Of a stretch of DNA of 64,000 nucleotides, positions 14,135-49,778 are shown piece after piece (the stretch's first letter is position 1; each line of letters begins with the position of its first letter). The stretch is taken from NCBI GenBank assembly GCA_947632085.1, contig CANRNY010000010.1, positions 2,488 through 66,487 on the forward strand, given 5' to 3'. The notes under the pieces are model-generated. The model saw only the letters and a list, made by a program, of their open reading frames with translations, was not told the DNA's origin and did no database searches. Made by a program: the position numbers and the translations under genes. The stretch is from an uncultured Bacilli bacterium (lineage in GTDB: Bacteria; Bacillota_I; Bacilli_A; RF39; UBA660).

Positions 14135-15565
14135 TTATTTTCTCATAAAGTTATATTTTTTAAGACCTACTATTAAGGATACACCAGTACCAAGTCCAAA
14201 TAATACTAATAGGATTAATGATAAATCAGATGTATCTGGAGGTGTTACTGTAGTTGTTGGTGGATTATATCTATAATACATATGTCTAAGTTCGCTTTCA
14301 CAAGTACCAAGTTCGTACTCAAAATCTGGTCTATGTTCAGTAGATGTTACTTCTCCATTACAACCTTCAACATACATTCCAGTAGCGATAAATCCATTAC
14401 CTTCAACTTTTAATTGATTATATGCTGTCATATCAGTTAATTTATCAACTAATTTACCATTAAAGTCATATACAAGGATATCATTAACATATGTATCTAA
14501 TTTGCTATCATAACCCTTTTGACCAAAGAAAACAATGTAATCATCCATTATTTCTCCACCATAGAATCTTTCATAATCTTTAGTTTGAATAGTGAATTTT
14601 TCTTTGCCACCTTTATAAAATTTTAATAAAGCTTGAGTTGATACTTTTTGGTTTTCAATATAATCCATCATAGTTAAACTTGGACCAGCATAATATAATC
14701 CAGCTTTTAAAGTATAATTATTTTTTGTACGTATTGAATACCATCTTTTTAATGTTTTTCCATCTGATTCAGTTTTATTTTCATTGCTTGTGAAGTAGCT
14801 TACTTGTTGATCAGTAGGATCGATGTAATCAACTTTTTTAAAATCTTTATCTATTAATAAATATTTAACGCCATATTTTACACCATTTTTATCTTCATTA
14901 TAATCATAGTCTTCACAATCTTCATCAGAAGGCTCTCTATCATTACATTTTCTTTCTTCTGCTGGTATTCCATATAAATAATATTCTCTATCAGTATAAA
15001 CTAAAATACTACCATCATCATTAAAATGGAAGAAATTAATTCTACCAGTTATAGGATTAATTGAATCAAGGAATAAGTTTCTTATACCACGAGCATTTGT
15101 TAAATAAAATGGATCATAGAAAGTTCCACTTAAACCATCTAGGTTTACTTTACCAACTTCGTTAAGATTTTCGTCTAACTTAACGATGCTTGTTACAGAT
15201 GTATTTCTTTCATCTTCATCCTCTTTAAGAGGTTCTGAAACATCTAAATATAAATACTTACCATCTGTTTCAATAATAGTAGTGTATTTATTAGTAAATA
15301 CCTTTTTCTTTAGTTCTTTACCTTCCTTGTTAAGATATCTAATTGTAAAGTTTTTTCTTGAAGCATCTTCATCAACTGTTATAAATCCATTTTTATAAAT
15401 TAAGTTACGTGATTGTTGGAAATGAGCGGTTCTAACTCCTTTGATAGCATCTGTTTCGAATACTTTTGTTGTTATAGCACTAACAAATATTAGTGAAGAA
15501 ACAAACATTAAGCATAATAGTATTAAAAACGTTGGTTTAAAATACTTTTTAAGTGATTTTTTCAT
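14135..15565 (-). CDS. Secreted/surface protein (476 aa) with an N-terminal signal anchor and a C-terminal hydrophobic anchor
   Basis: N-terminus KKYFKPTFLILLCLMFVSSLIFVSA. C-terminus PPDTSD, then LSLILLVLFGLGTGVSLIVGL, then KKYNFMRK. Confidence 0.65.
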   Translation of the reverse strand: MKKSLKKYFKPTFLILLCLMFVSSLIFVSAITTKVFETDAIKGVRTAHFQQSRNLIYKNGFITVDEDASRKNFTIRYLNKEGKELKKKVFTNKYTTIIETDGKYLYLDVSEPLKEDEDERNTSVTSIVKLDENLNEVGKVNLDGLSGTFYDPFYLTNARGIRNLFLDSINPITGRINFFHFNDDGSILVYTDREYYLYGIPAEERKCNDREPSDEDCEDYDYNEDKNGVKYGVKYLLIDKDFKKVDYIDPTDQQVSYFTSNENKTESDGKTLKRWYSIRTKNNYTLKAGLYYAGPSLTMMDYIENQKVSTQALLKFYKGGKEKFTIQTKDYERFYGGEIMDDYIVFFGQKGYDSKLDTYVNDILVYDFNGKLVDKLTDMTAYNQLKVEGNGFIATGMYVEGCNGEVTSTEHRPDFEYELGTCESELRHMYYRYNPPTTTVTPPDTSDLSLILLVLFGLGTGVSLIVGLKKYNFMRK

Positions 15566-15660
15566 ATTTTATACTTCTCCTATTCTATTGTCTTTATTTT
15601 ATCATTTTAGATTATTAAAAGCAATATAATAATATTTATTAATACTTATTTATACATAAA

Positions 15661-17088
15661 TTAACTGATTTGTTTCTTTTTAACGATAATAATATTTTTT
15701 AGTAAAGGCCATGTTAGTAGTAAATATATTCCAGCTCCAATAATAACTTCTAATAACATATTGATAATTTGATATGGGAATGCAAATGATATTTTATTTA
15801 AAATAAAATACATTATAAAACTACTAATTATGAATAATACTATTCTTGATAAAATTAGTTTTAAATTGATTTTTTTCCTTAAAATAATAATTCTTATTAC
15901 TAAGATAAAATAATCAGAAATTAATGTAGCAATAGCTGCTCCAACAGCATTCCATTTAGGTATTAATATGAAGTTTAAAATTATATTTATCGGAATACCT
16001 AGAGCTACGGTTTTTACATATGTTGTATCTTCATGTTCTGGTAAAAAATACATATCTCTTAACATAGTAGAAAAGGTTAGAGAGAAAAAGTAAAAAGATA
16101 AAAAATATAAGATAGGTATAGCATTTAAGTATTCGTTACTAAAGAAGATGGAAATAAAATCTTTAGAAATAGCTAAAATACCAAAAATACTACCGAAAGA
16201 TAACCAAGAAGTAAATATTAGAGAACTATTTCTTAATTTTTCATTAATTTTGCCTTCATTTTTCTTCTGTTTAGATAAAAAAGGTAATAATACAGTTGAT
16301 AATGGTATTACAATTAAACGCGGTAAGAGCATTATTTTACGAGCACAACTATATAAACCAACTTGAGAAATATGACTTAGATTTCCAAGCATTGTCTCAT
16401 CTAATAAATCATAAATTCGAAGAGCTAATCTAGGTAAGAATAATAAAGCCATACCTTTTAAATGAAGCCAAGAAAATTTGATATGATGATTAACAAATAA
16501 ATCTTTAAAATTAATATATTTTTTTAGAAAAAGCCAATAGTATATATTACTAATTAAATGAGATATTGAAAAAATAAAAGCATATAAAACAACATCATGT
16601 TTATCTTTAACAAAACCAAATATTAAAACTATTGATATTAAATTAATAATAAAGTTCTTAAGAGCAACTAATTTAAGATTTTCAACCCCAGTATAAAACC
16701 AACTAATATTAAAGCAATTAGCTATTAAATAAATAGTAAACATTAAAGATAAAAATAAAGTATTTCGAAAAAATATAACACAAGTTATTATATATATTAA
16801 TATTACTAAAATATGAGCAATAACTTGAATTTTAAAGATACTTTTAAAAGTTAAAAGTAACTTCTTCTTGCTTTGAGAATTTTCAGCTATTTCTCTTGCG
16901 CCATAATATTGAACACCTAAACTAGCAGCTAATATAAAGTAAGAAACTATGGAATTACAATAACTATATAAGCCATAGTTATCAACACCTAATGTTTTAG
17001 ATATATACGGGAATGTAATTAGTGGGAATAGAACTAATAATATTTGATATAAAACATTATATAAATAATTTTTTTTAATTCTATTCAT
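15661..17088 (-). CDS. Polysaccharide/oligosaccharide flippase (Wzx/MOP superfamily)
   Basis: 475 aa with about 12-14 hydrophobic segments. N-terminus LYNVLYQILLVLFPLITFPYISKTLGVDNYGLYSY is typical of polysaccharide biosynthesis flippases. Confidence 0.8.
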   Translation of the reverse strand: MNRIKKNYLYNVLYQILLVLFPLITFPYISKTLGVDNYGLYSYCNSIVSYFILAASLGVQYYGAREIAENSQSKKKLLLTFKSIFKIQVIAHILVILIYIITCVIFFRNTLFLSLMFTIYLIANCFNISWFYTGVENLKLVALKNFIINLISIVLIFGFVKDKHDVVLYAFIFSISHLISNIYYWLFLKKYINFKDLFVNHHIKFSWLHLKGMALLFLPRLALRIYDLLDETMLGNLSHISQVGLYSCARKIMLLPRLIVIPLSTVLLPFLSKQKKNEGKINEKLRNSSLIFTSWLSFGSIFGILAISKDFISIFFSNEYLNAIPILYFLSFYFFSLTFSTMLRDMYFLPEHEDTTYVKTVALGIPINIILNFILIPKWNAVGAAIATLISDYFILVIRIIILRKKINLKLILSRIVLFIISSFIMYFILNKISFAFPYQIINMLLEVIIGAGIYLLLTWPLLKNIIIVKKKQIS

Positions 17089-42465: not shown

Positions 42466-43455
42466 TCAATGTTCATCAGGCATTTCATCTATCTCTTCAG
42501 GAATTAATTGCATTATTAAACATTTTCTATCATCTTTGCTTTGTTCTAAGTCCTTCATTTCTTTAACTAGTGATTGGACTTCATTAGCAATTGGATTAGT
42601 TCCATTATAGAAATCTAAATAAGCATCTGGAATACTTGTTGCAAAGCCATAACTTTTAATTATTTCGTTTAGTTCTTCTGTCGTTAGTTGACGAGCAAAA
42701 GGCCAAAAGTCAACGTAGTTACCTTTTTTATTAACATATGCTGTTTTAACATAACGAGTAATATAATTACTCTTTTGTAAGTTATATGCACCATTTAAGA
42801 TAACCGACATAAGACCATAATCTCTAATTGTTGATAAGGTATAGCCCATTTCTTCAGAATTAAATTCATATTTAGTATAGTATTTTGATGTACGTGGTAG
42901 AAGACCTCTTTTATCGTATCCATTTTTAGAACTTTGTTCATCAATAGATAGAACATCTATCTTTTTAGTATGAAAACTATAGATAGGAGTATGACCATCT
43001 ACTTCACGATACATTTGTTGATATCTAATATCACATAAAGCATCATTTTCTGGATTATATTGGACATAATAAACAAAGCCATCATAACCATCAGTATCTT
43101 TATGAGATAGTTTTTTAGTACCTATTAAGTGTTCTTTTTTAGATTCATCTACCATATATGTCGTACCATCATTATTATAATAGAAGAAGTTAGAACCTAG
43201 TTTTATCATCCCAATACTTTTATCTTCCTTTAGTTGAAAAGGAATAATTTCATAATGTTTATAATAGTTTTTGATATAAAGACAATTTGGCCCATCACAA
43301 ACAATAAAATTAATATTATCTTCATCTAAGACAGCATAAATAATTACTTCTTTTTCACCAAAATACTCATAAACATGCCCCATTATATTGGGAATGTGTT
43401 CAATAACATCATCTGTACATCTAATTATCTTCGCCATCTTGTATTTCTTCTCCAT
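42466..43455 (-). CDS. Hypothetical protein (329 aa), tandem paralog B
   Basis: Shares YVQYNP.ND, YQQ.Y, FHT, TL.DYG, ITRY and GF.TSIP motifs with 43421..44398. The true start may be 43437. Stop codon is TGA. Confidence 0.65.
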   Translation of the reverse strand: MEKKYKMAKIIRCTDDVIEHIPNIMGHVYEYFGEKEVIIYAVLDEDNINFIVCDGPNCLYIKNYYKHYEIIPFQLKEDKSIGMIKLGSNFFYYNNDGTTYMVDESKKEHLIGTKKLSHKDTDGYDGFVYYVQYNPENDALCDIRYQQMYREVDGHTPIYSFHTKKIDVLSIDEQSSKNGYDKRGLLPRTSKYYTKYEFNSEEMGYTLSTIRDYGLMSVILNGAYNLQKSNYITRYVKTAYVNKKGNYVDFWPFARQLTTEELNEIIKSYGFATSIPDAYLDFYNGTNPIANEVQSLVKEMKDLEQSKDDRKCLIMQLIPEEIDEMPDEH

Positions 43456-44398
43456 CCATTGTAAATTTTAAAACTACTGGACTACCATTAGTGTAATCTT
43501 TTGTTTCTTCAATAGGTTTTAATAAATCTGATAATTCTTGATATGTTCTTATTTCTGGTAATTCGTTATTATGGTAATCAACTAATAATTTAGGTATAGA
43601 TGTGTTGAATCCTAATGATTCAAGATATTCTTTTATTTCTTCTATTTTATATTGATTACAGAATGGGAATAATGATATAGCTTGATAGTTTTTAGTAATA
43701 AATAATTCACGATAATATCTTGTTATATCATTTGAACCTTGTAAGCTAACAACATCTTGACCGATAGTTGCGCCTACACCATAATCTTTAAGAGTAGCTA
43801 AAGTATAAAATAATGGTTCATCTCGATAATCAAAAGTTCTTTTAATATATGTTTTAGAACAGAAAGGTAATTTAACACCTTTATCTCTTAAAAGAACATG
43901 TTTTTCTATCTTGATTTGGAAAGGTACTCTAGTATGGAATTCATATATTCTAGCTTTATTACTATAAATATTTTGTTGATACATTATCATAACACGCATA
44001 TCATTTGTAGGATTATACTGAACATAACATATCATACCATTATATCCTTCGTTATCAGGGCCATTAGGTCTTTCAAAGAAATCTAGACATTCTGTCATAC
44101 CATCTTCACGTCTTTGAAATACTCGACGCTCACCTTGAGGATGCATTTCATAATCATCAAAGGCAACATCAGCAACTTGATAATTATCATCGACAGTAAA
44201 CATTTGATAGCCGACTACTTTTTCGTCAAGTTCAAATATTGTAAAAAGATTTTCTACACGATGAAGAATTTTTTCTTCACCATCAATATTAATTTTATAA
44301 TAAACTCCATTCACACTTTGAAATAATTCATAGCATGCTTGAAATATAGGTTGATATTTTTGAACATCTTCAGATGTTAATTCACCAATTGTTATCAT
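43421..44398 (-). CDS. Hypothetical protein (325 aa), tandem paralog A
   Basis: Collinear motif set with 42466..43455. Its 3' end overlaps the start of the downstream paralog. Confidence 0.65.
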   Translation of the reverse strand: MITIGELTSEDVQKYQPIFQACYELFQSVNGVYYKINIDGEEKILHRVENLFTIFELDEKVVGYQMFTVDDNYQVADVAFDDYEMHPQGERRVFQRREDGMTECLDFFERPNGPDNEGYNGMICYVQYNPTNDMRVMIMYQQNIYSNKARIYEFHTRVPFQIKIEKHVLLRDKGVKLPFCSKTYIKRTFDYRDEPLFYTLATLKDYGVGATIGQDVVSLQGSNDITRYYRELFITKNYQAISLFPFCNQYKIEEIKEYLESLGFNTSIPKLLVDYHNNELPEIRTYQELSDLLKPIEETKDYTNGSPVVLKFTMDGEEIQDGEDN

Positions 44399-46282: not shown

Positions 46283-46430
46283 ATAACTTCCCCACTTCTT
46301 TTATAAAATCCAAGGTACACAATACCACATTTTGGGGTAAAAAACAAGTTTATTTATGGATTATTGGGATTATTTAACACTTAATACCATTTTATCTTTG
46401 ATTTTTTAGAATTTTGCCAAAAAATTATGA

Positions 46431-46477
46431 GTTATCGACCACTTTTTGACTTTTTATATACAAAATTGGTCGATAAC
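46431..46477. repeat. 11-bp perfect inverted repeat with a 25-nt spacer
   Basis: GTTATCGACCA (46431-46441) and TGGTCGATAAC (46467-46477). It is relatively GC-rich for this intergenic region. Confidence 0.9.
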
Positions 46478-46556
46478 TGCCGTGGTTTATAAAACTCTAA
46501 TATTAATGTATTTAATCAAATATGTATATTTTGAATGATTCTTTTTATTTTAAAAG

Positions 46557-47021
46557 TTATTTATAATATTTATTTATAATTTTACATATTTCTTCTATAT
46601 TATCTTTACTACTTGTTGGAATATGTACATTTTTTTTCTCTACCTTTATTCTTTTTAATTCATTTCCTATTTCATTAAGTTCCAAAAAATAAAAGTTTTT
46701 AGTCAAAATACTTACATATATTAAAATAATCGGAATATTTTTTTGATAAGCATAATAGGCGTTTGACGAAGAAATAGCGCAACTAATCATGTTTGGTGTT
46801 CTTATTAATGGTTGTATTATCTTTTGGGTTCCTTTTATTTGTATAAAAGCTATTTTCCCTGTCGGTCTGTCGTTTTCAAACATTTCAATCAAACCATCTA
46901 TTCCATAATCTCTTTCTGTAATATCCCTATATATTAAAACTCCATCATTATAAGCATCAATTTGAGATCTTATATAATCCTTAGAATTTGTTTCAATTTT
47001 ATGTGATTTAACTCTTGCCAT
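46557..47021 (-). CDS. DUF4365-like / PD-(D/E)xK-type nuclease-fold protein (154 aa)
   Basis: ERDYGIDGLIEMFEN...GKIAFIQIKG matches the DUF4365 core as I recall it (D...E/Q-x-K arrangement). The RBS AAGGAAAAAG and ATG lie 13 nt after the upstream stop. Confidence 0.55.
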   Translation of the reverse strand: MARVKSHKIETNSKDYIRSQIDAYNDGVLIYRDITERDYGIDGLIEMFENDRPTGKIAFIQIKGTQKIIQPLIRTPNMISCAISSSNAYYAYQKNIPIILIYVSILTKNFYFLELNEIGNELKRIKVEKKNVHIPTSSKDNIEEICKIINKYYK

Positions 47022-47034
47022 TTCTTTTTCCTTA

Positions 47035-48810
47035 TTATAATTTTTCTAAAACTTTTATATAGGTCATCACTTTTGAGTAATTAGCAATTTTCTTTGTATA
47101 AAAGGCCATTTCGTTAGTATTATATACAAGTTTTTCTGTATTTTTTGCAATTGTATCCATTTTTATATTACTTACAATTAATTCATTCTGAATCTCTCTT
47201 AAAGATTTATTCACTTCTTTTAATTCTTTGTATAAATAATATTGATTTTCCGTTATTTTATCCAGTTGTTCGATTATTGTATCTGCTCTTATTTCTTGCT
47301 CGTACATATTATAGGCACCATCGGCTCCATCTAACTTTTCGCATCTTCCAGATTCGAAGTAGTCAATAAATCTAGATACTGCAATAATATTTCTATATTT
47401 ACCATAAATAATATTATAACTATATATTTCATTTCTTAATTTTACATTATCTTCTAATAATTCTAAGATATAATTCATTTCGTATTTTATTTTTTCAATG
47501 TTTAATATATGTTCAATTTCATTTAAATTTTCTGTTTCATAACCATCTTCTAATATTTTTAATTCGTGATTTGCTTTATCAATTTTTTTAGATATTTCTG
47601 ATTTTTGTTCATTATATTTATCCATTGCTTTTTTATAATTTAATTCATTTGTTTTATTTAACTCATCATATTTGGTTTTTAAATTTTTTTTCATTTCTAA
47701 TTCATAATTGCTTTTTGCTTTTTTGTATTCTGACAATTTTTTATTATAAATTTTTAAGCTCTTTTCATATTTTTCTTTGAGTAATTCATTTTCTTCGTTT
47801 ACCTTTTTCTTGTTAAATAATCCTGGTTTTTTATTTATTGGTTCTTTTGGTTTTGATGGTTTAATTGGCACTTCTGTGTCGTCAATCGGACTCTTACCAC
47901 AAGATGGACAAACTATACTGTCTTTTGTTATTTCATTCCCACAGTGAATACATGCTACACATGATTTCTGTGGAGGTATTATTTTTATCAATTCATTATT
48001 TAGTGTTGCAATATTATTATTCAATTCAACTTTTTTATTTAATATTTTATAATTTAGATTGAAAGTTTCACAATCTGCTAAAAGCTCTTCTACTTTTAAA
48101 TCTAACTGTAAATCTTTATATCTTTGGTTTAATGAATATATATTAGTTTCAATAATTATTATTTCTTTCATATAATTTAATAATTCTTGTTTGTTATTAT
48201 ATATTTTTTCCTTATATTTATCATTGTCTTCTATTTCGTATTTATCCTTTAATTTATCTTCATAATAACTAAAATCAGTTTCCATTATGTTATCTAGTTC
48301 GTCACTAGAGTATGGAACAAAAAATAATTCATTTAAATATTTATTATACATTTCATCATAGTATGCGTACAATTTATAGTTGCTTTGCAGGTTAGATGTA
48401 TCTGGTATTGGTTTTAATATCCCCATTTTTTTTAAACTACTTTGCACAATTGAACTTAAACCGATTTCTTCTGATGTTAGGGAATTATTATATCCATTCG
48501 TATAATTAGTTATATATTGAAATTTATCTTTAATTTTTTCGGAATAATATTTATACTCAGTAAGATTACTTCTCATTTTTAGCAATATATCATCAATTTT
48601 TTTATCTTCTTCATTTAATACTGCTCCGAATACTGCATCTTCTTTTGTTATAAGTTTAGATGTTTCATAATCTACATCTATAGCCATAAAATAACCTCTA
48701 GCTATAATATTGCTGTTTATTATTCTCTCTTTAATTTCCCAAGAAGATTCATCGATTTTCATTTTATTTTTTAACACTATTTTTTCTGGTTCGTTTTCTG
48801 TTTTCTTCAT
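47035..48810 (-). CDS. Coiled-coil protein (591 aa) with a central double-CxxC zinc ribbon. No family recognised.
   Basis: CVACIHCGNEITKDSIVCPSCG sits between long K/E/N-rich heptad-like segments. No P-loop. GAGG RBS 5 nt before the ATG. Confidence 0.7.
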   Translation of the reverse strand: MKKTENEPEKIVLKNKMKIDESSWEIKERIINSNIIARGYFMAIDVDYETSKLITKEDAVFGAVLNEEDKKIDDILLKMRSNLTEYKYYSEKIKDKFQYITNYTNGYNNSLTSEEIGLSSIVQSSLKKMGILKPIPDTSNLQSNYKLYAYYDEMYNKYLNELFFVPYSSDELDNIMETDFSYYEDKLKDKYEIEDNDKYKEKIYNNKQELLNYMKEIIIIETNIYSLNQRYKDLQLDLKVEELLADCETFNLNYKILNKKVELNNNIATLNNELIKIIPPQKSCVACIHCGNEITKDSIVCPSCGKSPIDDTEVPIKPSKPKEPINKKPGLFNKKKVNEENELLKEKYEKSLKIYNKKLSEYKKAKSNYELEMKKNLKTKYDELNKTNELNYKKAMDKYNEQKSEISKKIDKANHELKILEDGYETENLNEIEHILNIEKIKYEMNYILELLEDNVKLRNEIYSYNIIYGKYRNIIAVSRFIDYFESGRCEKLDGADGAYNMYEQEIRADTIIEQLDKITENQYYLYKELKEVNKSLREIQNELIVSNIKMDTIAKNTEKLVYNTNEMAFYTKKIANYSKVMTYIKVLEKL

Positions 48811-48835
48811 ATAAACCTCGCTTATCTATAAAATA

Positions 48836-48866
48836 ATTCTACCCCCCCCCGCTAACTTTTTGTCAA
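48836..48866 (-). promoter_or_regulatory. Sigma-A-type promoter with a G9 tract in the spacer
   Basis: On the minus strand: TTGACA (48866-48861), a 19-nt spacer AAAAGTTAGCGGGGGGGGG, TAGAAT (48841-48836), then 25 nt including GAGG, then the ATG at 48810. Confidence 0.55.
48842..48850. repeat. C9/G9 homopolymer tract
   Basis: Nine consecutive C on the plus strand. This is by far the longest G/C run I noticed in this AT-rich window. Confidence 0.97.
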
Positions 48867-48868
48867 CG

Positions 48869-48895
48869 AAAAAGAAGAGTCTTTCTAACTCTTCT
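48869..48895 (-). terminator. Rho-independent terminator of the SHOCT gene
   Basis: AGAAGAGT, 7-nt loop, ACTCTTCT, followed by TTTTTC on the minus strand. It overlaps the stop at 48894. Confidence 0.7.
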
Positions 48896-49694
48896 AACTA
48901 TTTAATAATTCGTTTTTCTTTTTTTCGTATTCTTCTGCAGTAATAGCTCCCATATCTAGAAGTTCTTTATATTTTTTAATTTCATCAGCTGGAGAAATAG
49001 TTTGCATTATAGGTTTACCTTTATTTGTTTTTATTTCGTGAATACGATTTTTAATATAATTAACAACTTCATTAATATTATCTGGAGTAATAGCAGTTAA
49101 ATCGTATGCAAAGGAATTTTCATTAAAGTAGTTACTCTTAAGATTATTCATTAAACTAGATGCAGTTTCTAGTTGAATATAACCATAAGCAATTCCGGTT
49201 TGTTTAACTTGGATACCATTACAATCAACATAATATATTGTTTTTTCTCCATCAGTGGCATTACCAAAAATTAATGATTCGATAGCTAATCTAGTAACGA
49301 TAACTACTCTATCTTCATATACTTCCATATATCTGCCGCCAATACCATATATTCCGTATATTGCACCTGGTTTTGGTGATCTTTGGAAATAATTTAGATT
49401 AAAGCCACAATTTTTACAGAAGCTAGCTTCCTTTTTATTTTGAGTACCACATTTTGGACATAATTTAACATTTACATCATTTCCACATTTAACACAAAAT
49501 TTAGCTCCTACTTTATTTTGTGCTCCACAAGTTGCACAAATGACATATTCTTCATCGTTTGATTGATTAACATCTTTAGGAGTTTCTTCTTCGGCATTTA
49601 GTTCAACTTCTGTTAATTCACTACCACATATAGGACAGATATTTTCTTCACTTTCTACTTCTTTTTCACATTTATTACAATATTTTTTAGACAT
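48894..49694 (-). CDS. Triple zinc-ribbon / SHOCT-domain protein (266 aa)
   Basis: Three CxxC-x(n)-CxxC ribbons (CNKC..CPIC, CATC..CVKC, CPKC..CKNC), a central globular domain, and a C-terminal SHOCT-like KKYKELLDMGAITAEEYEKKKNELL. Confidence 0.75.
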   Translation of the reverse strand: MSKKYCNKCEKEVESEENICPICGSELTEVELNAEEETPKDVNQSNDEEYVICATCGAQNKVGAKFCVKCGNDVNVKLCPKCGTQNKKEASFCKNCGFNLNYFQRSPKPGAIYGIYGIGGRYMEVYEDRVVIVTRLAIESLIFGNATDGEKTIYYVDCNGIQVKQTGIAYGYIQLETASSLMNNLKSNYFNENSFAYDLTAITPDNINEVVNYIKNRIHEIKTNKGKPIMQTISPADEIKKYKELLDMGAITAEEYEKKKNELLNS

Positions 49695-49753
49695 TTTTTC
49701 ACCACTATTTCTACTAGTATAATTTTACTATTCTTATAAGCATAAATCAATAT

Positions 49754-49778
49754 AAAAAGAAGAGTTTAATACTCTTCT
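49754..49778 (-). terminator. pheT rho-independent terminator
   Basis: AGAAGAGT, 5-nt loop, ACTCTTCT, followed by a T-run on the minus strand. It overlaps the pheT stop. Confidence 0.75.

Follow-up and report, generated by a model that had tools for sequence, protein, structure and literature searches.

A coiled-coil protein gene and a standalone DUF4365 nuclease gene in a variable pheT-typA slot of an uncultured gut bacterium of the class Bacilli: an accessory, probably conflict-related operon

Results

Two adjacent genes, one for a 591-aa protein rich in coiled coil and one for a 154-aa protein of the DUF4365/DREN nuclease family, lie between pheT and typA on contig CANRNY010000010.1 of an uncultured Bacilli bacterium. 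The stretch analysed is 64 kb long and is referred to below as the window; coordinates given without a locus name are window positions, and all genes and features of the module are on the minus strand. The initial annotation, made from the sequence alone, had described the pair as translationally coupled genes with their own promoter and had proposed that they form a defence module. Open reading frame (ORF) calling places the large gene at 47035..48810 and the small gene at 46557..47021, in agreement with that description. The two are joined by 13 nt (TAAGGAAAAAGAA, 47022..47034) carrying an AAGGA ribosome-binding site, as had also been noted. The 3' boundary is a terminator-like 17-bp inverted repeat followed by a U-run (46430..46478), identified by repeat scan and RNA folding. 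It folds with an energy of -18.8 kcal/mol (z = -3.5); together with the U-run behind it, this makes the hairpin the probable terminator of the operon. The promoter lies directly after the terminator of a third, co-inserted gene. A -35-like hexamer TTGACA (48861..48866) and a -10-like hexamer TAGAAT (48836..48841) flank a spacer that ends in a G9 homopolymer (48842..48850), a candidate phase-variation tract, and the GAGG ribosome-binding site of the large gene follows at 48816-48819. The pair therefore does have its own promoter, though the spacer of 19 nt (10 nt plus G9) is non-canonical, and a promoter scan restricted to the canonical range of 16-18 nt did not call it. An Rfam scan of the region gave no match.

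The pair belongs to a strain-specific insertion of about 3.35 kb with three genes (46406..49751), situated between the pheT terminator and the typA promoter. Its boundaries were mapped against the related locus L024. A pheT-based scan supplied 80 related loci from uncultured gut metagenome-assembled genomes (MAGs) of the class Bacilli (Candidatus Coprovivens-like, many of them from rabbit). Only in the two closest relatives, L024 and L080, does typA adjoin pheT. In L024, with pheT 96% and typA 98% identical to the window, the gap between the two genes is 175 bp and represents an empty site; its alignment with the window runs up to 49752 and resumes from 46405. In L080, with pheT 97% and typA 98% identical, the interval is 799 bp and holds a different gene. 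The inverted repeat at the 3' boundary is also found in L080 and is absent from L024. None of the three window genes was found in any of the 80 pheT loci. The cassette is thus accessory, since the two closest relatives lack all three genes. The identical large protein is encoded on five metagenome contigs. Of these, L005 contains the pair alone, and each of the other four runs from pheT (or its end) through the third gene and the pair to typA. Taken together, the operon is a horizontally acquired accessory operon in a variable pheT/typA slot of an uncultured Coprovivens-like gut bacterium of the class Bacilli.

The third gene of the insertion (48894..49694; ORF call and domain search) encodes a 266-aa protein in which three zinc ribbons and a SHOCT domain are recognisable, with a central region of unknown function. 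The initial annotation had correctly recognized an AT-rich insert between typA and pheT, with a GC content of 22-26% as compared with 28-32% in the two flanking genes, and had overlooked this gene. A terminator scan and the comparison with L080 located a terminator after it at 48873..48895, where the stem of the pheT terminator (AGAAGAGT...ACTCTTCT; 49758-49778) recurs. The N-terminus of the 266-aa protein resembles that of the cargo protein of L080 (33% identity over 60 aa). The duplicated stem and the likeness of the two N-termini suggest that an earlier cassette was duplicated and rearranged as the slot grew.

The small protein matched PF14280 (DUF4365) with an E value of 6.4e-16 and 59.1 bits against a cut-off of 24.3, the match covering positions 14-136 of the 139 in the profile. 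It also matched the PADLOC model Aga_REase (Argonaute-associated REase; E 2e-11) and could be aligned to the DREN domain of DREN-APAZ (PDB 9jsb) with GIDG...E...QIK in register. The catalytic core, aligned with homologs, reads D38-Y-G-I-D42...E46...Q61-I-K63 (46833..46910); its residues D38, G40, D42, E46, Q61 and K63 do not vary among 24 standalone homologs, which are about 155-175 aa long. By sequence the small protein is a predicted DUF4365/DREN nuclease of the PD-(D/E)xK type with an intact DxGxD...QxK motif; the fold is predicted from its homology to the solved DREN domain. The equivalent residues have been mutated elsewhere. Mutation of the motif abolishes activity or toxicity in TmuRE (Q62/K64; PMC10810196) and in NbaSPARDA (D41, Q60 and K62; PMC12205087), and three of the four single mutations at D42, D46, Q66 and K68 of EAT16 abolish toxicity (PMC11297309). 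Published work documents both defence-effector and toxin roles for DUF4365/DREN (PMC10810196, PMC12205087, PMC11297309, bioRxiv 10.1101/2024.07.02.601686). The original assignment of a DUF4365 core, of the PD-(D/E)xK type and recurrent as an effector, is supported by the Pfam score, the alignment with 9jsb and these published roles.

The large protein belongs to a family that was much larger than it first appeared. A word-indexed homolog search returned 14 relatives only, and the impression of a rare family was overturned by an exhaustive profile search, which recovered 3,292 cluster representatives at E<=1e-3, of which 1,598 reached E<=1e-30; most are full-length, at 500-650 aa. When the large protein and 46 family members were searched against Pfam, NCBIfam, PADLOC and PHROGs, zinc-ribbon and coiled-coil noise was all that was obtained. 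A PDB sequence search with the family profile hit designed coiled coils only, and Foldseek searches of the PDB with the full model and with a model of the C-terminal domain gave no match. Searches by tblastn with proteins P0001, P0010 and P0015 against isolate plasmids and/or phages were likewise without a match.

In the AlphaFold2 (AF2) model of the large protein, residues 1-180 are of low confidence and confident long helices begin at about residue 200. The earlier description of a protein consisting almost entirely of coiled coil is therefore overstated. Besides the long coiled coil, family alignments reveal three conserved elements. The first is a helix around E221-L234. The second is a Pro-rich, basic motif, KPxEPxxxKPGLFNKKKxxxEN (residues 318-341, 47788..47859), in which P321, P324, F332, N333 and N341 are invariant in alignments of both 14 and 46 sequences. 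The third is a C-terminal domain (residues 444-591, 47038..47481) with the signature KYRN...SGRC..L.G.DGAYNLYE.E.R...Q and the invariant residues K471, Y472, Y484, R489, G495, G498-N501, E504 and Q523; it is modelled as all helical with a mean pLDDT (predicted local distance difference test) of 82. A short, 342-aa form of the family retains only the conserved C-terminal half (profile positions 346-565). It occurs in L144 (9208-10648), L151, L163 and about 25 similar loci, in most of which an ORF of 131 or 143 aa without a match to the family profile lies upstream with a 20-nt overlap. Either a separate two-ORF variant or a gene split by a frameshift could account for this arrangement.

The large protein contains a double-CxxC zinc ribbon at residues 284-304 (C284/C287...C301/C304; 47899..47961), whose placement near the middle of the protein had been likened to the zinc hook of Rad50. 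The ribbon is present, with weak Pfam matches (E about 1e-3, below the curated cut-off) and low pLDDT in the AF2 model; the likeness to a hook did not survive the family comparison. Among 119 members carrying the GLFNKK-type motif, a central ribbon just upstream of the motif is found in the window protein only; the others have an N-terminal split CxxC...CxxC ribbon (101 members) or none. Since the central ribbon is specific to the window protein, it is not a zinc hook of the family, and a hook of the Rad50 type was ruled out. The window protein has no Walker A motif (G....GK[ST]), which is lacking in 156 of the 157 family members, and its match to the PADLOC LmuB profile has an E value of 0.69. 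Weak LmuB matches were obtained for 17 of the 46 family members. They reach no further than the coiled-coil stretch of the profile (positions about 200-489 of 611), and the regions matched are not consistent from one protein to the next, which indicates compositional similarity, and homology to LmuB was ruled out. That the protein is not an ATPase of the SMC, Rad50 or LmuB kind, as had been stated at the outset, is thus borne out.

Examination of the genomic contexts shows how seldom the two families meet. The large family was surveyed in 94 other loci, which represent 41 non-redundant clusters, and no DUF4365 gene was found in any of them (0/94). Its neighbours include helix-turn-helix (XRE) regulators, tyrosine integrases, resolvases, TrbL/VirD4/PrgI, Fic together with type I restriction-modification, TIR and WYL genes; the sole recurrent neighbour is a divergent XRE regulator, present in 5 of the 41 clusters. 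The solitary loci and the mobile-element neighbours indicate standalone mobile-element cargo. Therefore, the family of the large protein is a big, unnamed and normally solitary family carried by mobile elements.

The small family keeps other company. A 122-aa ORF precedes the DUF4365 gene in an integrative and conjugative element with ParB and type IV secretion system genes, and elsewhere the upstream gene encodes a 1,136-aa leucine-rich repeat (LRR) surface protein. In flagellin islands with ISL3 elements it is a 217-aa membrane protein; in these loci (L191-L196, e.g. L192 4967-6804) the string comprises DUF8042 (~121 aa), the 217-aa membrane protein, DUF4365 (160 aa) and a 75-aa protein, and in several contigs it adjoins ISL3 transposase fragments and PDDEXK_2 genes. 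A 232-aa multi-transmembrane protein stands upstream in an integrase-flanked operon (L197 3884-8341, also L198-L200). Its four genes, overlapping or near-adjacent, encode a Band_7 protein with double zinc ribbons (DZR; 467 aa), the membrane protein, DUF4365 (169 aa) and a zinc-ribbon-TPR-TIR protein (614 aa), and by its appearance it is an undescribed operon of the defence type, drawing on the small nuclease family seen in the window. In three IMG/VR phage contigs (L188 1028-4482, L189 4501-7481 and L190 1-2156), the DUF4365 gene lies between the large terminase (TerL) gene upstream and the portal gene downstream, and in L190 it is followed by a GIY-YIG gene. The phage proteins may be homing-type or packaging-associated nucleases. 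When the upstream partners of the other DUF4365 genes were compared with the large family by hhalign and BLAST, they were unrelated to it and to each other. These results establish that the two genes come from separate families that move independently on mobile elements and are combined only in this lineage.

Outside the identical copies, a single close variant, seen in L021 to L023, preserves the pair. There, a small protein 82% identical to that of the window follows, with one nucleotide between the genes, an ORF that shares 91% identity with the large protein over its last 216 aa. The nucleotide identity between the window and L021 is 90% over a segment that starts within the large gene and stops precisely where the inverted repeat has its outer end (46430); past the repeat, L021 has an AAA_14 ATPase gene in place of the typA promoter. 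Both ORFs are intact in L021 and the catalytic motif is kept. The dN/dS (ratio of nonsynonymous to synonymous substitution rates) is 0.08 for the C-terminus of the large gene and 0.47 for the small gene, and the dS values are 0.50 and 0.17, respectively.

The poly-G tract in the operon promoter is the sole G/C run of at least 7 nt in the 64-kb window. Among the contigs that encode the identical 591-aa protein, the tract is G9 in L002 and L003, as in the window, and G10 in L001 and L004 with identical flanks; these assemblies have 4-5x coverage, and homopolymer errors may contribute to the difference. The promoter thus has a homopolymer inside the -35/-10 spacer and tract-length polymorphism among near-identical sequences, the latter seen in low-coverage assemblies. 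In L080, the same promoter, ribosome-binding site and first codons follow the pheT terminator (TTGACA, 11 nt, G8, TAGAAT, GAGGTTTATATGAAGAA) and drive a different gene, which encodes a 162-aa protein with a zinc ribbon and a transmembrane segment. Phase variation by way of a poly-G tract in the -35/-10 spacer is well established, as in tp0126 of T. pallidum and porA of N. meningitidis (PMC7864442).

Similar tracts were seen in related MAG DNA of the class Bacilli. In 1.37 Mb at 29% GC there are only 9 G/C runs of at least 8 nt, and at least 5 of these lie between a TTGACA-like -35 and a TATAAT-like -10 hexamer (L079 21600-21609; L099 16425-16434; L083 5916-5923; L043 15282-15289; L080 12415-12422). 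The genes that follow them are accessory and encode surface-type proteins with an N-terminal transmembrane segment, a zinc-ribbon and transmembrane protein, and a coiled-coil protein. The last of these is a protein of about 389 aa in L099, with a truncated homolog in L079. Judged by their sequence and position, the promoter-spacer poly-G tracts look like a lineage-wide phase-variation device.

Discussion

The module at this locus is accessory and probably related to conflict. It does not amount to a conserved new defence system; a defence-type module is plausible yet unproven. The reading that we favour, with a probability of roughly 0.4, is that of a conflict module whose nuclease is regulated or scaffolded by the coiled-coil protein. 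The conflict could be defence against phages or plasmids, abortive infection or rivalry among mobile elements. In it, the small protein would serve as a non-specific nuclease effector. An isolated DREN domain is a monomer and inactive, and it becomes a collateral nuclease only once a scaffold forces it into tetramers (PMC12205087). On this precedent the large protein would be the likeliest regulator or scaffold; as an oligomerising coiled-coil protein, it may hold the nuclease inactive and, on a trigger, bring its copies together. Slippage in the poly-G tract could then switch the expression of a costly module on and off within the population.

Several lines of evidence are consistent with a conflict module. 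In a second context, that of L021, the pair is preserved as a single block with its junction region and terminator, and both ORFs there are intact, under the dN/dS values given above. The segment is an insertion of lower GC content, with an empty site in L024 and alternative cargo in L080; the active site is intact, and the large family has mobile-element, regulator, TIR, WYL and restriction-modification genes as neighbours. The poly-G tract varies in length from G8 to G10. A standalone DUF4365 relative also takes part in the integrase-flanked operon with the Band_7+DZR and TPR-TIR genes. Set against these are the following observations. The nuclease gene is missing from all 94 surveyed loci of the large family, the genes upstream of small-family members are varied and unrelated, and the small family occurs inside a phage packaging module as well. 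In L021 the junction is remodelled to a 1-nt gap rather than conserved, and so is the N-terminus of the small protein. The large protein found no match in the PADLOC defence library. As for the proposed phase variation, homopolymer errors may account for part of the G9/G10 difference, and the spacers seen are all 19-20 nt, so that a clear 'on' length, with a spacer of 17-18 nt, was never observed. Co-occurrence thus fails beyond one lineage, which makes the claim of a new 'system' weak. Of the sensor-and-nuclease defence layout that the initial annotation had proposed, the accessory insertion and the real nuclease hold up and a conserved pairing does not; its expectation that the two families would recur together largely failed, the small family being found with other partners. 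It was right that the pair is not a named system, as PADLOC recognises no known system here.

The main rival explanation, possible though on balance doubtful, is that the two genes are cargo with no functional tie to each other. In that case the 154-aa gene would be a portable, selfish or homing-type PD-(D/E)xK nuclease of the I-Ssp6803I kind that settles immediately downstream of unrelated genes, and the 591-aa protein would carry out its usual standalone role on mobile elements without it. The large family is indeed solitary in 94 of the 94 other loci, and the genes that precede small-family members are those of TerL, of an LRR surface protein or of small membrane proteins, or else the 122-aa ORF. 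The slot between TerL and the portal in three phage contigs, once beside a GIY-YIG gene, points in the same direction, as do the lower dS of the small gene (0.17 vs 0.50), its weaker constraint and the remodelled junction. However, the pair and its terminator were inherited as one block in two contexts, and the gap between small-family genes and the gene upstream is mostly short (-1 to 13 nt). The DUF4365 gene of L197 overlaps both of its neighbours in an operon with a TIR protein, which has more the look of a component than of a parasite. Moreover, neither a target site nor a nuclease-free allele of this large gene was found.

A toxin-antitoxin or addiction module, in which a DUF4365 toxin is neutralised by the upstream protein and the inserted segment is stabilised, is very unlikely. 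The toxicity of DUF4365 domains when delivered or expressed (EAT16), the order of partner then nuclease with tight spacing, and the operon's place within a variable island would all suit it. A 591-aa antitoxin drawn from a normally solitary family would, however, be atypical, the isolated DREN domain is inactive as a monomer, and a stochastic promoter that switches both genes off fits addiction poorly. A housekeeping factor for chromosome maintenance or repair, of the SMC/Rad50/LmuB type with a zinc hook and a resolvase-like nuclease, could be imagined from the long helices, the CxxC pair near the middle of the protein and the weak PADLOC LmuB matches in 17 of 46 members, but it is effectively refuted by the presence/absence pattern (the gene is missing from the closest relatives) and the lack of ATPase heads (156 of 157 members without Walker A, LmuB matches confined to coiled coil in inconsistent regions), together with a central ribbon unique to the window protein and no Foldseek match to SMC or Rad50.

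Returning to the conflict module, the closest comparison is with SPARDA (short prokaryotic Argonaute with DREN-APAZ). Both have the same nuclease domain, with D42, Q61 and K63 here corresponding to D41, Q60 and K62 there, and by that precedent the bare domain would need partner-driven oligomerisation to become a collateral nuclease. Unlike SPARDA, the locus has no APAZ domain and no Argonaute nearby, since the nuclease gene is flanked by typA and the gene of the 591-aa protein; the 154-aa nuclease stands by itself as the bare domain, and the coiled-coil protein that partners it is unrelated. Divona, a single-protein DUF4365 and crr6 defence in Vibrio integron cassettes, is similar in using DUF4365 as the effector in a small mobile cassette, and EAT16, a DUF4365 toxin of extracellular contractile injection systems, in using it as a killing domain, like the role proposed here. 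In both cases DUF4365 is fused, whereas here it is standalone, without crr6 or a delivery domain. Lamassu (SMC-like LmuB with an LmuA effector) shares the layout of a long coiled-coil protein with a nuclease-type effector. The pair is not a member, having neither ATPase heads nor Walker A, LmuA or LmuC. Homing endonucleases of the I-Ssp6803I type and terminase-adjacent phage nucleases, of about 150 aa, can be likened to the window gene by size, by fold precedent, as the DREN tetramer resembles I-Ssp6803I (PMC12205087), and by the position of its relatives between TerL and portal; a target site, an intron or a nuclease-free cognate allele was not found for it. With respect to the promoter, the likeness to porA of N. 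meningitidis and the tp0126/tpr genes of T. pallidum lies in a poly-G tract between -35 and -10 whose length differs among close relatives. The differences are that the host here is a gut commensal of the class Bacilli at 27% GC and that the cargo which the tract would regulate is cytoplasmic and not a surface antigen.

A DUF4365 effector and phase variation through a promoter spacer are already known kinds. For the partner family and for this combination, no description was found in the libraries and literature searched. A more ambitious proposal would be that the 591-aa family is a widespread standalone sensor or scaffold of mobile-element conflict, which has here recruited a bare DREN nuclease and activates it by oligomerisation, as in SPARDA without the Argonaute, under a phase-varied poly-G promoter; we regard this as distinctly improbable.

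If the pair does work together, a bare DREN nuclease would be controllable by a non-Argonaute scaffold, and a very large unnamed mobile-element family of gut Firmicutes would gain its first functional handle. Whatever the function, small-genome gut Bacilli are seen here to have a cargo slot served by a conserved poly-G promoter, and the recurrent promoter-spacer tracts suggest that never-cultured commensals phase-vary their accessory genes. Of the findings, this slot and the large unnamed family are the more durable.

Additional features of the locus

On the other side of typA, downstream of it (42466-44398, minus strand), are two adjacent, overlapping, paralog-like genes of 325 and 329 aa with no Pfam match. 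They are only 69-85% identical in strains in which typA is 98% identical, an indication of fast evolution. In L024 an extra segment of about 1.8 kb (14350-16138) lies between typA and the genes of the 325/329-aa type, and this constitutes a second variable spot.

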